DNA of 64,000 bases. Origin: Alphaproteobacteria bacterium (GTDB lineage: Bacteria > Pseudomonadota > Alphaproteobacteria > Bin95). The notes beneath the pieces are model-generated. The model saw nothing but the letters and a program-made list of their open reading frames with translations, had not been told where the DNA came from and ran no database searches. Position 1 is the stretch's first letter. Every line of letters starts with the position of its first letter. The position numbers and the translations under genes are program-made. The DNA is taken from NCBI GenBank assembly GCA_965205265.1, contig CBDBGH010000003.1, positions 480,001-544,000 of the forward strand, in the 5' to 3' direction. Positions 51,071-55,648 of the stretch are shown here, in pieces.

Positions 51071-52714
51071 ATGACGCGCAATCTCGACCCGATTACCGTC
51101 TCCGTGGTCAGCCATAGGCTGACGGCCATCGTCGAGGAAATGGGCGAGGCCATGCTGCGCACCGCCTATTCCCAGATTCTCAACTCCTCGCGCGACTTCT
51201 CCGCCGCCATCTGCGACCGCGACTGCCGGCTGGTCGCGCAGGCGGAGCATATCCCGGTCCATGTGGGCGCGATGCCCTGGGCGGCGAAGGCGGTCTCGGA
51301 CCGCTTCGGGGAGGACGTGTATGAGGGCGACCTGTTCGTCGTCAACGATCCCTATGCCGGCGGCGGCAGCCACCTGCCGGACGTGACGGTATTCGCGCCG
51401 GTGTTCATCGACGGGCGGCTGGCCTTCTGGACGATCAACCGCGCCCATCACAGCGATATCGGCGGTGCGACCCACGGCGCCTACAACCCCTCCGCGACCG
51501 AGATTTTCCACGAGGGGCTGCGCATTCCGCCGCTCAGGCTCTGGGAGCGGGGCCGCCCGCGCGACGACCTTCTGGAGATGATGGCGCTGAACGTGCGCCA
51601 CCCGCGCGACTTCAAGGGCGACCTGGCGGCGCAGATCGGCTCCGTGCGGCTGGGCGAAGCCCGGCTCCAGGCGCTGGTCGACACGTTCGATGCGCGCACC
51701 GTGATGGCGGCCTGCGAGGCGGTGCTGGACGGAGCCGAGCGCCGCTCGCGCGCCGAAGTCGCGACATGGAAGGAGGGCGTGTTCCACGGCGAGGCGTTTC
51801 TCGACGACGATGGCCACGGCCGGCATGACATCGCCATCCGCGCCACAGCGACTGTCCGCGCGGGCGAGGTCGCGGTGGACCTGAGCGCATCCGACCCGCA
51901 GAGCACGGCCTTCGTCAATTCCAGCCATGCCAATACGGTCTCGGCGGTCACGCAGTCCTTCGCCTATCTGATCGACCCGGAGATACCGAAAAACGAAGGC
52001 GCGTTCCGTCCGCTCTCGGTCAAGTTGAAGGAGGGGACGATCGTCTGGGCGGAGGACGGCCTTCCGGTCACCATGTGCACCTCGCATTGCGGCAACGAGA
52101 TCATCGAAGCCGTGATTACGGCGCTCGCGCAGTCCTGCCCGGCGCGCACCATGGCCGGCTGGGGCCGCCGGCTTCGCATCGCCATCAAGGGCCGGGACCC
52201 GCGCAACGGGCGCGGCTTCATCTGGCATATGTTCTATGCCCGGCCCGGCGGCGGCGGCTCGCCGGGCGGGGACGGCTGGCATTCGGTCGGCGAGTGGCAT
52301 TCCGCCGGCGGGTTGAAATTCGGCAGCGTCGAGGTGGCGGAGGTCCGCTTCCCGCTGCATATCGCGCGCCACGAGTTCCGTCCGGGCTCCGGCGGCGCCG
52401 GGGAATATCGGGGCGGCTGCGGGGCCGAGCTGGAACTGCGGGTCGAGACGGAAGAGCCGGCCGTCGCCAACACGGCCGGAGACGGCGTGCGTTATGGTGC
52501 GCGCGGCATTCTCGGCGGCGGGGACGGGCTGCCGCACCGCTATATTCACCACGGCTCCGGCGGCGGCCGCGTGCTCCCGAGCAAGCAGGTCGGCATCGAG
52601 GTCGCGCCGGGCGACGTGTTCGAAGTGCTGTCGGGCGGCGGCGGCGGCTGGGGCGATCCGGCGCGCCGCACGCCAGCCGCAGCGGAGGCCGACCGGCTGG
52701 ACGGCGTGGCCTGA
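51071..52714 (+). CDS. hydantoinase B/oxoprolinase family protein
   Basis: LLRTAYS-like MLRTAYS, HIPVHVG, NDPYAGGGSHLPD, AHHSDIGG, SGGAGEYRGG, GGGGWGDP. Confidence 0.92.
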   Translation: MTRNLDPITVSVVSHRLTAIVEEMGEAMLRTAYSQILNSSRDFSAAICDRDCRLVAQAEHIPVHVGAMPWAAKAVSDRFGEDVYEGDLFVVNDPYAGGGSHLPDVTVFAPVFIDGRLAFWTINRAHHSDIGGATHGAYNPSATEIFHEGLRIPPLRLWERGRPRDDLLEMMALNVRHPRDFKGDLAAQIGSVRLGEARLQALVDTFDARTVMAACEAVLDGAERRSRAEVATWKEGVFHGEAFLDDDGHGRHDIAIRATATVRAGEVAVDLSASDPQSTAFVNSSHANTVSAVTQSFAYLIDPEIPKNEGAFRPLSVKLKEGTIVWAEDGLPVTMCTSHCGNEIIEAVITALAQSCPARTMAGWGRRLRIAIKGRDPRNGRGFIWHMFYARPGGGGSPGGDGWHSVGEWHSAGGLKFGSVEVAEVRFPLHIARHEFRPGSGGAGEYRGGCGAELELRVETEEPAVANTAGDGVRYGARGILGGGDGLPHRYIHHGSGGGRVLPSKQVGIEVAPGDVFEVLSGGGGGWGDPARRTPAAAEADRLDGVA

Positions 52715-52734
52715 GCGGGCCGGCGGCCGGTGAT

Positions 52735-52802
52735 TGGTGGATAGTGGTTGCAGGCGGGCTCCGTTCGCACTATCCACCAGCCACTGACCACTAGCCACTG
52801 GC
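52735..52802. repeat. heptamer tandem repeat with inverted arm
   Basis: CACTATC-CACCAGC-CACTGAC-CACTAGC-CACTGGC (52768-52802); TGGTGGATAGTG/CACTATCCACCA 12-bp IR. Confidence 0.75.
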
Positions 52803-52810
52803 GACCGCCC

Positions 52811-53170
52811 ATGGAAACCTGGATTACGCTGGCGCTGGTCGTTGCGCTGGCCGCTCTCATGATCGGCATGATCCGCTCGCTGCGCGGCGACTTGGGCAAG
52901 CGCATCGACGGCGTGGACAAACGCATCGACGAGACGCGCAGCGACTTGGGCAAGCGCATCGACGGTGTGGACAAACGCATCGACGAGACGCGCAGCGACC
53001 TGGGCGGTCGCATCGACAGGGTCGAACAGCGCATGGACCGCCTGGAAGCCGGACTGGTCGAGGTGAAGGAGGGCCTGGCCGAAGTGCGCGGCGAACTCAG
53101 GTTCGTGCGCGACTACATCCTGCGCCGCAACGCCCCGGCGGAAGAGCCGCCGGCCGCGCCGGCGGAATAG
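52811..53170 (+). CDS. membrane-anchored repeat coiled-coil protein (paralog 2)
   Basis: TM helix; 54-bp/18-aa tandem DLGKRIDGVDKRIDETRS starting at 52889, 52943 and 52997 (partial); LAEVRGELRFVRDYI. Confidence 0.8.
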   Translation: METWITLALVVALAALMIGMIRSLRGDLGKRIDGVDKRIDETRSDLGKRIDGVDKRIDETRSDLGGRIDRVEQRMDRLEAGLVEVKEGLAEVRGELRFVRDYILRRNAPAEEPPAAPAE

Positions 53171-53188
53171 GCCAGCGGACATCGGCCC

Positions 53189-54238
53189 ATGCAACTCGCA
53201 GCCAGACGCTATGAGGTCGCCGACATGATGGCGGCGCAGGAATTCTACCACAGCCGGGGCTGGACGGACGGCCTGCCGGTGGTGCCGCCGACGGAGGACG
53301 CCGTCGAGGCGTGCCTGGAGTGGGCGGGCCTCGTGCCGGACCACCTGGTGGGCGTAGAGCCGGTGCGCGCCCGCGCGGTCACGGCCGAGAAGCTCGCGAT
53401 CAACGCGGTCATGGCGGGTTGCCTGCCGATGCACTTCCCGGTCGTCGTCACGGCCTTCACGGCGATGCTGCAGGAGCCGTTCCTGCTGCATGGCGCCACG
53501 GCCAGCACGGGCGGCTGCGCGGTGCTCGTCGTCGTCAACGGGCCGTTGGCGGCAGAGATCGGCATGGATGCGACCTTCAACGCGCTCGCCTCCAGCGACC
53601 GGGCCTCGATGGCGATCGGCCGCAGCCTGCGCCTCTCGCTCATCAACATGATGGACGTGCGGCCGGGCGCCATCGACCGCTCGGTGCTCGGCCATCCGGG
53701 CAAGATCAGCTATTGCCTCGCCGAGGACGAGGCGGGCTCGCAGTGGCTGCCGCTCGCCGAAGAGCGCGGCATGCCCGTCGGCGCTTCCTGCGTCACCGTC
53801 ATGGCTGCCGGCGCGCCGCGCCAGCTGATGAACGAGTGGACGACGGTTCCGGAGGAAATCCTCGACACCTATGCCTCCGAGATCCGCGCCAACATGCGCC
53901 ACTACTCGATCTGGCCGGGCAATTACGCCATCGTCGTGCCGCCGCAATTGCGCGCCCACTTCCATGCGGCCGGCTGGTCCAAGGCCGATGTCCGCGCCTA
54001 TTTGTTCGAGAAAGCGCGCATCCTGCGCTCGGAATGGGCCGATTGCGGCAAGGGCGCGGTGGTGCGCGACCGGGGCGGTTCGGAATATGCGGCGCTGTCG
54101 GAGCCGGACGACCTGCTGGTGATTGCGGCCGGCGGCCCGGCGGGTGGTTTCGGCGCGGTCATCCCGCCCTGGCTCGGACCCAAGAGCCGGGCGGTCACGG
54201 TTGCGATCGGCGCCTGCGTCGATTGCGAGATTCCATGA
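53189..54238 (+). CDS. UGSC-associated conserved protein with C-terminal CxxC
   Basis: GWTDGLPVVPPT, EKLAINAVMAGC, IGRSLRL, GHPGK, AAGGPAG; ends CVDCEIP. Confidence 0.8.
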   Translation: MQLAARRYEVADMMAAQEFYHSRGWTDGLPVVPPTEDAVEACLEWAGLVPDHLVGVEPVRARAVTAEKLAINAVMAGCLPMHFPVVVTAFTAMLQEPFLLHGATASTGGCAVLVVVNGPLAAEIGMDATFNALASSDRASMAIGRSLRLSLINMMDVRPGAIDRSVLGHPGKISYCLAEDEAGSQWLPLAEERGMPVGASCVTVMAAGAPRQLMNEWTTVPEEILDTYASEIRANMRHYSIWPGNYAIVVPPQLRAHFHAAGWSKADVRAYLFEKARILRSEWADCGKGAVVRDRGGSEYAALSEPDDLLVIAAGGPAGGFGAVIPPWLGPKSRAVTVAIGACVDCEIP

Positions 54239-54267
54239 GTTCGGACGACACGAGGAGAGAGAACGGC

Positions 54268-54792
54268 ATGCAGATACTCGATCCGTCGCATGAGGAAGGG
54301 GCCGAGGGCTTTGCGCCTGCGGTCCGGCTTGCGGCGCTGGAGGGCGCGACCGTCGGGGTGATCTCCAACGGCAAGGAGGGGACGAAGGACTTCTTCGCCG
54401 CCTTCGAGCGGGTGCTCAGGGACCGGTACGGCGTCGGCGAGGTCGTGCTGCGCACCAAGTCGAACTACAGCGCGCCGGCCGACAAGGGCCTGCTGGAGGA
54501 AGCGAAGAGCTGGGACGCCCTCGTCGCCGGCATTGGCGATTGAGGCAGCTGCTCGTCGTGCAGTTTGCATGACGCGGTTGCCGGAGAGCGGATCGGGGTG
54601 CCGTCGGCCGGCATCATGACGGAAACCTTCGTGAGCGCGGCGGAACTGATGGCGCGCGTGCTGGGCGCGGAGGACTACCCCTTCGCGGTGATCGAGCACC
54701 CGATCAGCAGCGCGGACCGGGCGATGCTCGCCGCCCGCGCCGAGCGCGCCGCTGCCGACTGCGCGCGGCTGTTGCTGGCCCCGGACGGGTAG
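54268..54792 (+). CDS. UGSC family selenoprotein (174 aa, Sec at codon 92)
   Basis: Two in-frame ORFs joined by a single TGA at 54541: AGIGD-U-GSCSSCSLHD; ILDP, ISNGK, EHPIS motifs. Confidence 0.88.
54544..54582 (+). promoter_or_regulatory. bacterial SECIS-like hairpin
   Basis: GGCAGCUGC-UC-GUCGUGCA-GUU-UGCAUGAC-GCGGUUGCC; apical-loop G is 20 nt after the UGA. Confidence 0.75.
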
Positions 54793-54820
54793 GAGAGCGG
54801 TCCCGCAAGGCCGGCACAGA

Positions 54821-54852
54821 CCATGACACCGGCGGAAAATCCGGGCTAGGCT
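54821..54852 (+). promoter_or_regulatory. recurrent promoter-like motif, copy 4
   Basis: CCATGACA-CCGGCGGAAAA-TCCGGGCTAGGCT, 37 nt before ATG 54890. Confidence 0.55.
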
Positions 54853-54889
54853 CGCGCCACTCGTATAGTTGCTGCAGACGGGAGCCGGC

Positions 54890-55648
54890 ATGGGCAGGTT
54901 CGATGGCAGGGTTGCACTGGTCAGCGGCGGGGCTCGCGGACAGGGCGCGGCAGAGGCGCGAGCCTTTGCGGCGGAGGGCGCGGCGGTCGTTTTCGGCGAC
55001 ATCCTGGAGGAGGAAGGCGCGGCCGTTCAGGCCGGCATCGAGGCGTCGGGCGGGGCTGCGGCCTATATGCATCTGGATGTGACGAAGGAGGACGACTGGC
55101 GCCGTGCGGTCGGCTACGCGACGGACACGCACGGCCGGCTCGACATCCTGGTGAACAATGCCGCGATCGTCATTGCCCGCGCGGCCATCGAGCATCGCAC
55201 GGTGGAGGAATGGGACCGGGTGCAGGCGGTGAATTCACGCGGCGTCTTTCTCGGAACGAAGCATGCGATACCGGCGATGCGGGCTTCCGGCGGCGGTTCG
55301 ATCGTCAATATCGTGTCGGTGGCCGGCATCGGCCAGTCGACCCATCAGGAACCCGCCTATGCCGCAAGCAAGGGCGCGGTGCGGATATTCACCAAGGTAA
55401 CGGCGGCGCAGCATGCCGTGGACCGCATCCGCTGCAACGCGGTGCTTCCCGGTCCGATAGACACCGAAATGCTGCACAACGCGTTGTCCGACCCGGCGGT
55501 GCTGGCCGAGCGCGTGTCCCGCGTCCCCATGGGGCGTATCGGGACGATCGACGAGGTCGTTGCGGCAGTGCTGTTTCTGGCATCGGACGCCGCCTCCTAC
55601 ATGACCGGCGGCGAAATAGTGATCGACGGCGGCGCAACCAGCATGTAG
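54890..55648 (+). CDS. SDR family oxidoreductase
   Basis: SGGARGQG, NNAA, YAASK. Confidence 0.92.
   Translation: MGRFDGRVALVSGGARGQGAAEARAFAAEGAAVVFGDILEEEGAAVQAGIEASGGAAAYMHLDVTKEDDWRRAVGYATDTHGRLDILVNNAAIVIARAAIEHRTVEEWDRVQAVNSRGVFLGTKHAIPAMRASGGGSIVNIVSVAGIGQSTHQEPAYAASKGAVRIFTKVTAAQHAVDRIRCNAVLPGPIDTEMLHNALSDPAVLAERVSRVPMGRIGTIDEVVAAVLFLASDAASYMTGGEIVIDGGATSM

Follow-up and report, generated by a model that had tools for sequence, protein, structure and literature searches.

Does the TGA codon at positions 54541-54543 of this alphaproteobacterial DNA end a gene, or does it specify selenocysteine (Sec)? The DNA analyzed is a stretch of 64 000 nucleotides (the 64-kb window) from contig CBDBGH010000003.1 of assembly GCA_965205265.1, and positions given without a prefix refer to it. 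Translation with table 11 splits the region, giving one open reading frame (ORF) that ends at 54543 and a second that starts at 54565. A first-pass annotation, made from the letters alone, had proposed that the two pieces are in frame, parted by this one TGA, and that GIGD-U-GSCSSC marks them as a single selenoprotein of the UGSC family. Our analysis bears out both points. The frame 54268-54792 on the + strand comprises 174 residues and a stop, and its sole internal TGA lies in the context VAGIGD-U-GSCSSCSLHD. We conclude with high confidence, from comparison of sequences, that this is a genuine Sec-encoding gene of the UGSC family with its own Sec insertion sequence (SECIS), and that its product would work with a protein of 349 amino acids (aa) encoded just upstream, hereafter the partner.

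How secure is the family assignment? Pfam PF24696, the model of the UGSC family, aligns with the read-through protein over its full length, residues 2-170 falling on positions 1-171 of the 172 of the profile; the score is 161.9 bits, where 25 is the gathering score. The motif GD-U-GSC lies at the conserved column, and in an alignment of 46 sequences D91, G93, S94 and C95 are invariant while the U/C column is at least 90% conserved. Invariant residues are also found beyond the motif, the full set being K36, K64, D91, D102, F121, H144 and P145. Judged by its sequence, the gene is an ordinary new member of a known and functionally uncharacterized family. UGSC was termed a selenoprotein of unknown function in 2007 (Zhang and Gladyshev, PMC1976440), and a review of 2026 that lists it states that the functions of bioinformatically found prokaryotic selenoproteins 'remain largely uncharacterized' (PMC13188914). 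By title and abstract, the papers on UGSC selenoproteins since 2009 are surveys or reviews. The accessible text of PMC2398784, PMC1976440, PMC9312934 and PMC13188914 gives no function for UGSC or its partner, except for a remark of 2008 on an 'Unknown_1' fusion.

If the TGA were a real stop, the locus would hold a pseudogene, or two small genes encoding 91 aa (the N-terminal part) and 75 aa (the C-terminal part). The table 11 split agrees with this, and so does public annotation, where the sequence stops right at ...GD in 13 of 29 database relatives; 8 others have cysteine at the column, 5 another residue (R, R, W, G, S), and 3 do not cover it. That pipelines would miscall such genes had been anticipated in the first-pass annotation, and the 13 truncated relatives are just such cases. 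Against a real stop, the Pfam domain crosses the TGA in one piece, and the structural model of the read-through protein folds as a single domain, with a predicted local distance difference test score (pLDDT) of 91.2. The TGA occupies the motif column in all 79 Sec-form relatives examined, at identities down to ~25% and with the frame open on both sides. It was located in 30/30 orthologue loci, in 40/40 sampled paralogues together with the seventh paralogue of this genome, and in the three Sec forms (3/3) from other families. The taxonomic family of this genome was covered by 37 genomes from three genera, every one of which has homologues, and each of the 150 matches listed there, out of a set with 32 more, contains exactly one TGA. 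Cys-form relatives were collected by a Cys-type pattern scan with one genome per species; the best 80 of these 321 relatives, mostly from Actinomycetota, have TGC (76/80) or TGT (4/80) at the column. Thus the column holds TGA or a cysteine codon across Sec-form and Cys-form relatives, as the first-pass annotation had predicted. Cysteine at the column in genomes without Sec machinery, and a hairpin that is under selection as RNA, both discussed below, speak against a stop as well. We regard termination at this TGA as very improbable.

Could the TGA be a sequencing or assembly error, or be read as another residue such as tryptophan by a variant code? The single database relatives with W, G, R, R and S at the column would fit such a reading. 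Relatives P0003, P0004, P0006, P0007 and P0008 have R, W, G, R and S, respectively. These residues may be gene-calling artefacts rather than real substitutions, since all can be one-base neighbors of TGA (CGA, TGG, GGA, TCA) or translations by another code. The same TGA is present in the six other paralogues of this genome and in all 37 related genomes, and its recurrence in 79/79 Sec-form relatives rules out an error. Ordinary genes of this DNA, such as that of the partner (54236-54238), terminate with TGA too, and the genome encodes a complete Sec machinery. Contigs from two independent metatranscriptome runs of one study, from a relative ~95-97% identical, extend over 53960-54752 and 54254-54685 and so take in the gene junction as well as the TGA and hairpin; none of the differences listed falls on 54541-54543. 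This support is weak, because RNA libraries can contain DNA and a contig is not a transcript. In run X4 the contig depth rises from ~4 to 120 across 54503-54624, just over the TGA-hairpin segment, probably from other UGSC genes in the sample that share this near-invariant stretch. Taken together, the chance that the codon is an error or has some other meaning is negligible.

The genome has the means to insert Sec. Genes for selA (531 bits) and selB (435 bits) are neighbors, selD (277 bits) forms the C-terminal part of a 738-aa Pyr_redox_2-AIRS fusion, and tRNA-Sec scores 72.6 bits and is called tRNA-SeC with anticodon TCA by ARAGORN. All four components that the proposal presupposes are therefore encoded, each above its curated cut-off. 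An even sample of 301 genomes allowed a phylum-wide comparison. Two of these with a Sec-form UGSC (G240 and G260) have selA, selB and selD, whereas a third (G266; 100% complete), with a Cys form encoded by TGC, has none of the three and only a marginal match to the tRNA-Sec model (51.5 bits). Sec versus Cys at the column thus tracks the machinery, cysteine replacing TGA in genomes that lack it. In G240 the genes selA, selB, tRNA-SeC, partner, UGSC and selD form one cluster of ~8 kb (L213, G240:C1:1389500-1398500). The partner of this cluster has an open frame ~170 aa longer at its N-terminus, and the 743-aa SelD fusion frame of the cluster holds two TGA codons if read from the first start. We conclude that TGA 54541-54543 almost certainly encodes Sec, a conclusion drawn from sequence comparison.

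What would distinguish this UGA from a stop during translation? Immediately 3′ of it lies the two-tier stem described in the first-pass annotation, and each of its elements is as stated there: 9 bp, a UC bulge, 8 bp, and a GUU apical loop whose G is the 20th nucleotide after the UGA, with 19 nt between (nt 23 if the U of the UGA is counted as 1). The 19-nt upper hairpin has a minimum free energy (MFE) of −9.1 kcal/mol (z −4.29) and the 39-nt two-tier hairpin one of −25.1 kcal/mol (z −4.64), values reached by 0/200 shuffles in either case; the 66-nt context taken by itself is less striking (z −2.35, 6/200 shuffles). The SECIS of Escherichia coli fdhF is the experimental prototype of the bacterial element, and its loop bases that contact SelB are G23 and U24, numbered from the U of the UGA. 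The G23 and U24 of the present hairpin presumably occupy the same positions. Formate dehydrogenase was considered as a SECIS reference within this genome and set aside, the TIGR01553-like genes here having no internal stop. The published bacterial SECIS (bSECIS) model has an upper stem of 4-16 bp capped by an apical loop of 3-9 nt, a G in one of the first two loop positions that is usually followed by G or U, a spacing of 16-37 nt from UGA to loop, and an MFE of −7.5 kcal/mol or lower (PMC13188914, legend of Fig. 2). With its 3-nt loop on an 8-bp stem, GUU, 19 nt and −9.1 kcal/mol the hairpin agrees with the model on all four counts.

How well is the hairpin conserved? The 79 Sec-form genes give 52 distinct segments, of which 50 can form at least 6 of the 8 upper-stem pairs and 50 have a G-U-N loop at nt 23-25 (GUU in 36, GUA in 13, GUC in 1). 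The two exceptions are divergent fused paralogues, and pairs were counted on the other 50 segments. There 93.0% of the cells are paired, compared with 5.5-49.5% when the partner columns are slid, and 0/500 shuffles reach this value; the sequences are related, so such shuffle counts overstate the case. Compensatory changes are seen from G-C to A-U in 4 sequences and from C-G to G-C in 7. The evidence from synonymous sites is stronger. Across 30 orthologues, mean synonymous diversity is 0.038 in the seven codons of the stem, whereas the median for the gene is 0.402, and none of the 144 windows has a lower value. The loop is built from two fixed codons that are rare in this genome, AGT with 1.8% of the Ser codons and TTG with 4.7% of the Leu codons. 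The upper hairpin is under selection as RNA. What is general is the 8-bp upper hairpin with its G-U-N loop; the 9-bp lower tier, which had been taken as part of the same element, is specific to the orthologue group: 8-9 of its 9 pairs can form in the orthologues of two genera, but 0-7 in the other sequences. Similarly, the further cysteine pointed out earlier is present (C98) but is not a feature of the protein family at large: C98 and the adjoining S-L-H are encoded by the hairpin itself and go with the RNA, and the Cys forms have A-A-V-A in their place.

The hairpin is largely confined to the Sec forms. Of the 8 pairs, 7 or more can form at this offset in 46/50 Sec forms but in only 2/80 Cys forms, and the six commonest triplets at the loop position of the Cys forms (78/80 loci) include no G-U-N. 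The peptide encoded across the region is S-S-C-S-L-H-D in Sec forms and S-A-A-A-V-A-D in Cys forms. A covariance model of the Sec-form element finds a single site in the window, which is the present hairpin (74.5 bits; it is in the training set), and gives homologous Cys-form sites at most 29 bits.

Several observations weigh against a Sec-encoding gene with a SECIS. The protein scores 112.2 bits (E 2.1e-32) with NCBIfam NF041046, 'UGSC family (seleno)protein', under the equivalog cut-off of 125, which may be the reason that a pipeline would miss the gene. Covariation in the stem is modest, with both sides changed in 2 of 8 pairs, and was weak on a first, smaller set; the stem hardly varies, which accounts for this. 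The Cys-form genomes have a higher GC content, and MFE alone therefore does not separate Sec from Cys forms (−18.4 and −16.8 kcal/mol). In the sole alphaproteobacterial Cys form, the conserved S-C...H-D codons allow one portion of the stem, UCGUG/CACGA, to form. A scan of 54200-54900 with Rfam at E up to 10 gave three matches at chance level and no SECIS family. The hairpins of the two fused paralogues are no more stable than their shuffles (z −0.91 and +1.30).

Does the UGSC gene act alone? It does not: together with the upstream gene for the 349-aa partner it makes up a two-gene module. The stop of the partner and the ATG of UGSC are separated by 29 nt, and no promoter-like or terminator-like site was found between them. 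Over 52600-55000 there was no promoter-like site, and a single terminator-like site that is no better than chance. This genome contains seven UGSC genes, all with TGA, and each adjoins or is fused to a partner paralogue. The pairing holds in 35/35 alphaproteobacterial loci and, on the same strand, in 78/80 actinobacterial Cys-form loci, and the two families occur in exactly the same 4 of the 301 sampled genomes. Moreover, the divergences among the seven UGSC paralogues follow those of their partners (Spearman 0.72, a value reached by 61 of 5040 permutations). We strongly infer from these sequence patterns that UGSC works as one unit with the partner.

The partner family is large, with at least 7,613 relatives in 4,737 clusters at 50% identity. 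Searching Pfam and NCBIfam at relaxed thresholds gave nothing meaningful (0/51 members), and neither a UGSC profile nor a partner profile found anything below E 0.19 in sequence searches of the PDB. In the ESM Atlas the partner matches only unnamed clusters, one of which is labelled 'Thioredoxin family protein' and one of which (a 0.89 match) has UGSC on 16% of its members; the natural Cys-form UGSC homologue P0002 has no usable match there. Four residues of the partner are essentially invariant (D27, R145, E179 and W186). Its two cysteines are common but dispensable, C78 being present in 132/136 representatives and C176 in 126/141.

Fusions provide a further view of the pair. Among 37 longer or representative partner homologues, the N-terminal addition is a full UGSC domain in 4 and the C-terminal half of UGSC in 12, and the latter look like gene calls that start after the Sec TGA. 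It is an AhpC-TSA/Redoxin domain with a CPTC, CATC or CPTS motif in 4 and the ferredoxin-thioredoxin reductase catalytic chain (FeThRed_B) in 1. The remaining 16 additions have no family, and six of these are tandem duplications of the partner domain. Two of the modules of this genome are fused UGSC-partner selenoproteins, of 574 and 576 aa, at C3:1343611-1345335 (+) (L063:6698-8419) and L076:217-1944 (−), and one of them carries the variant motif U-G-A-C. Both have a hairpin unlike that of the present gene; its loop, CGUGUU, is the same in the two and follows the UGA by 17 and 24 nt. A 'UGSC/Unknown_1 fusion' mentioned in the accessible text of PMC2398784 probably corresponds to the partner-domain fusions seen here.

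What kind of protein is UGSC? The model (predicted TM-score, pTM, 0.86) consists of five consecutive β-α units, and places Sec92 at the N-terminus of helix 93-108, right after strand 84-87. The matches listed by Foldseek against the PDB are weak (template modelling score, TM, ≤0.50) and comprise flavodoxin, WrbA, lumazine synthase, the EF-Tu G domain and similar folds; no thioredoxin chain is among them. We infer from the model that UGSC is a small flavodoxin-like α/β protein, a five-unit sandwich. A 'likely Trx-like fold' had been proposed for UGSC in 2008 (accessible text of PMC2398784). The five β-α units and the lack of a thioredoxin among the listed matches leave that proposal unsupported.

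UGSC and the partner probably form a two-part selenium enzyme, on the evidence of their sequences. The steps can be drawn only tentatively, and we rate the chemical mechanism at somewhat less than an even chance. From what is established for bacterial Sec insertion, SelB carrying Sec-tRNA-Sec would bind the hairpin loop, and Sec would be delivered when the UGA enters the ribosomal A site. UGSC would then place Sec at the N-terminus of a helix within the U-x-x-C motif, and the partner would supply the site made of D27, R145, E179 and W186, usually with two cysteines. The two proteins would act as a two-part selenium-dependent oxidoreductase with Sec as the reactive centre. The U-x-x-C motif would close to a selenenylsulfide, and a thiol system would reduce this bond again; in other lineages that system would be the Redoxin or ferredoxin-thioredoxin reductase module fused to the partner.

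Alternatively, UGSC might be only a dedicated thiol/selenol reductant of a C78-C176 disulfide in the partner, which alone would do the chemistry. The position of U-x-x-C at a helix N-terminus in the model agrees with such a role, the partner cysteines are well conserved, and the Redoxin (CPTC/CATC/CPTS) and FeThRed_B fusions look as if reductants were interchangeable. However, three of the seven modules of this genome lack one or both partner cysteines and still keep U-x-x-C, and the invariant K36, K64, D91, D102 and H144 exceed the needs of a simple redox carrier; the predicted fold is not that of thioredoxin. That the cysteines are dispensable while U-x-x-C is kept argues against UGSC as a mere reductant of the partner, and favors a Sec in an active site shared by both proteins, with thiol modules giving the electrons. 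We rate a pure reductant as rather less likely than not. The same missing cysteines count against the detailed mechanism given above, in which the partner usually contributes two. So does the occurrence of full-length UGSC domains, joined to a partner, with neither Sec nor Cys at the motif (P0220, ..AEIGGS..; P0267, ..AADIGAA..); the domain can thus persist without its redox centre. By analogy with known Sec-dependent reductases, the pair might be an undescribed two-subunit reductase with Sec as the nucleophile in a shared active site, multiplied to seven substrate-specific modules; this we put forward as a possibility more doubtful than probable.

If it were so, each of the seven modules would be plugged into a different catabolic gene cluster: hydantoinase/CoA-transferase/short-chain dehydrogenase (SDR), amidohydrolase/enolase-superfamily, acyl-CoA ligase, Rieske oxygenase/SDR, and Zn-type alcohol dehydrogenase/luciferase-like. 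The UGSC-partner system would then be the main reason that these bacteria keep the Sec machinery. For annotation, the UGSC gene belongs to a class that pipelines truncate at the TGA, as do its six paralogues and no fewer than five further selenoprotein genes of this genome. The partner, the thiol-redox fusions, the dehydrogenase neighbors and the selA-selB-selC-partner-UGSC-selD cluster together offer a concrete two-protein system for study.

The wider neighbors of the modules vary, those of orthologues included, and dehydrogenases recur among them. At the actinobacterial loci (L133-L212) the gene order is Zn-alcohol dehydrogenase, UGSC (Cys form), partner. The upstream ORF was scanned at 57 of these 80 loci, those at which the largest upstream ORF is on the same strand (at the other 23 it is on the opposite one), and 51/57 encode a Zn-type alcohol dehydrogenase. 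The three dehydrogenases tested all exceed the cut-off of TIGR03989, 'NDMA-dependent alcohol dehydrogenase', a family associated with the mycofactocin system. The features of the present locus are collected in the table. Hydantoinase B was considered as a constant neighbor and rejected: the ~545-aa proteins at other modules belong to unrelated families, and HyuB flanks 7/30 orthologue loci. No Hydantoinase_A was found among the 13 ORFs scanned in 17.5 kb around the Hydantoinase_B gene. The 140-aa ORF contains a tandem repeat at 52882-53017 (54-nt unit, 2.5 copies, 92% matches) that encodes repeated DLGKRIDGVDKRIDETRS. This ORF looks like a recent insertion, since it is present in only 2/30 orthologous loci.

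Table. Positions of the UGSC gene, its RNA element and the neighboring genes in the window
Feature	Position	Strand	Remarks
UGSC-family selenoprotein gene	54268-54792	+	174 aa via one UGA; stop TAG 54790-54792; Pfam PF24696, 161.9 bits
In-frame TGA, the putative Sec codon (U92 of U-G-S-C)	54541-54543	+	From the homologue codon column
Shine-Dalgarno-like sequence GAGGAGAG	54252-54259	+	Read from the sequence; ends 8 nt before the ATG at 54268
Two-tier hairpin	54544-54582	+	9-bp lower stem 54544-54552/54574-54582, UC bulge, upper hairpin
Upper SECIS hairpin	54555-54573	+	8-bp stem 54555-54562/54566-54573; GUU loop 54563-54565; G = nt 23, U = nt 24
Partner gene	53189-54238	+	349 aa; stop 54236-54238; no Pfam/NCBIfam model; conserved D27, C78, R145, C176, E179, W186
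140-aa ORF between hydantoinase B and partner	52748-53170	+	Weak DUF1664 match, below cut-off
Hydantoinase_B/oxoprolinase gene	51071-52714	+	541 bits; closest NCBIfam caprolactamase subunit beta, far below cut-off

Outside the window there are five more probable selenoprotein genes in this genome (loci L117-L121), with an in-frame TGA and a downstream hairpin at C3:4134155 (+), 4421273 (−), 1193977 (−), 926550 (+) and 2960882 (−). The scan required GT in the loop, so their shared loop motif is there by construction. Two are CMD/AhpD-like with C-V-Y-U (21 bits against a cut-off of 23). The other three are GrdB/PrdB-like with U-P-x-C, and match PF07355 with 30.9 bits, with 17 bits and not at all, making three GrdB-like Sec genes in the same genome as the UGSC modules. 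In the database, the relatives of the GrdB-like gene are mostly fragments of 243 aa whose start lies just after the TGA.

How does the system compare with those already known? With the described UGSC family (PF24696; NF041046; accessible text of PMC1976440 and PMC2398784) it shares U-G-S-C with the Sec/Cys pair, a length of ~170 aa and a hairpin straight after the UGA. It differs in scoring below the NF041046 cut-off, in the seven paralogues in one genome, and in the obligate pairing with the partner, which is absent from the literature found. Like the bSECIS consensus and the element of E. coli fdhF, the hairpin lies in the coding region right after the UGA, with loop, stem, spacing and MFE in range; it differs from the consensus in that its loop, at 3 nt, is as short as the range allows and its upper stem has no bulged U.

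As a working analogy for the pair, protein B of glycine reductase and D-proline reductase, which carries Sec, comes nearest. Selenoprotein B is a small U-x-x-C protein active only with a larger subunit; Sec attacks the bound substrate, and the partner subunit bears a pyruvoyl group (accessible text of PMC11229817). Some results count against extending this to the mechanism of UGSC. PF07355 (GRDB) gives no match to the UGSC protein at E up to 10, and no PrdB or GrdB chain is among the PDB fold matches listed, all of which are weak. Alignment by hhalign of UGSC with GrdB-like selenoproteins of this genome (profiles of 3 and 14 sequences) gives probabilities of 47.0 and 47.4%, E 2e-4, over 104-111 columns with the U-x-x-C motifs in register, and at 47% the link is suggestive only. 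There are differences too. GrdB-like proteins have an N-terminal part of ~150 residues that is missing from UGSC, the partner has no similarity to PrdA/GrdE in family scans and nothing in it points to a pyruvoyl group, and Grd/Prd have been studied in anaerobes whereas the present genome has oxygenase and luciferase-like monooxygenase genes near some modules. The likeness to GrdB/PrdB (PF07355) is that of a small U-x-x-C Sec protein with a larger partner encoded beside it, and of a common local layout in which a β-strand, U-x-x-C and a helix are followed by G-(V/I)-P and then (H/F)-P.

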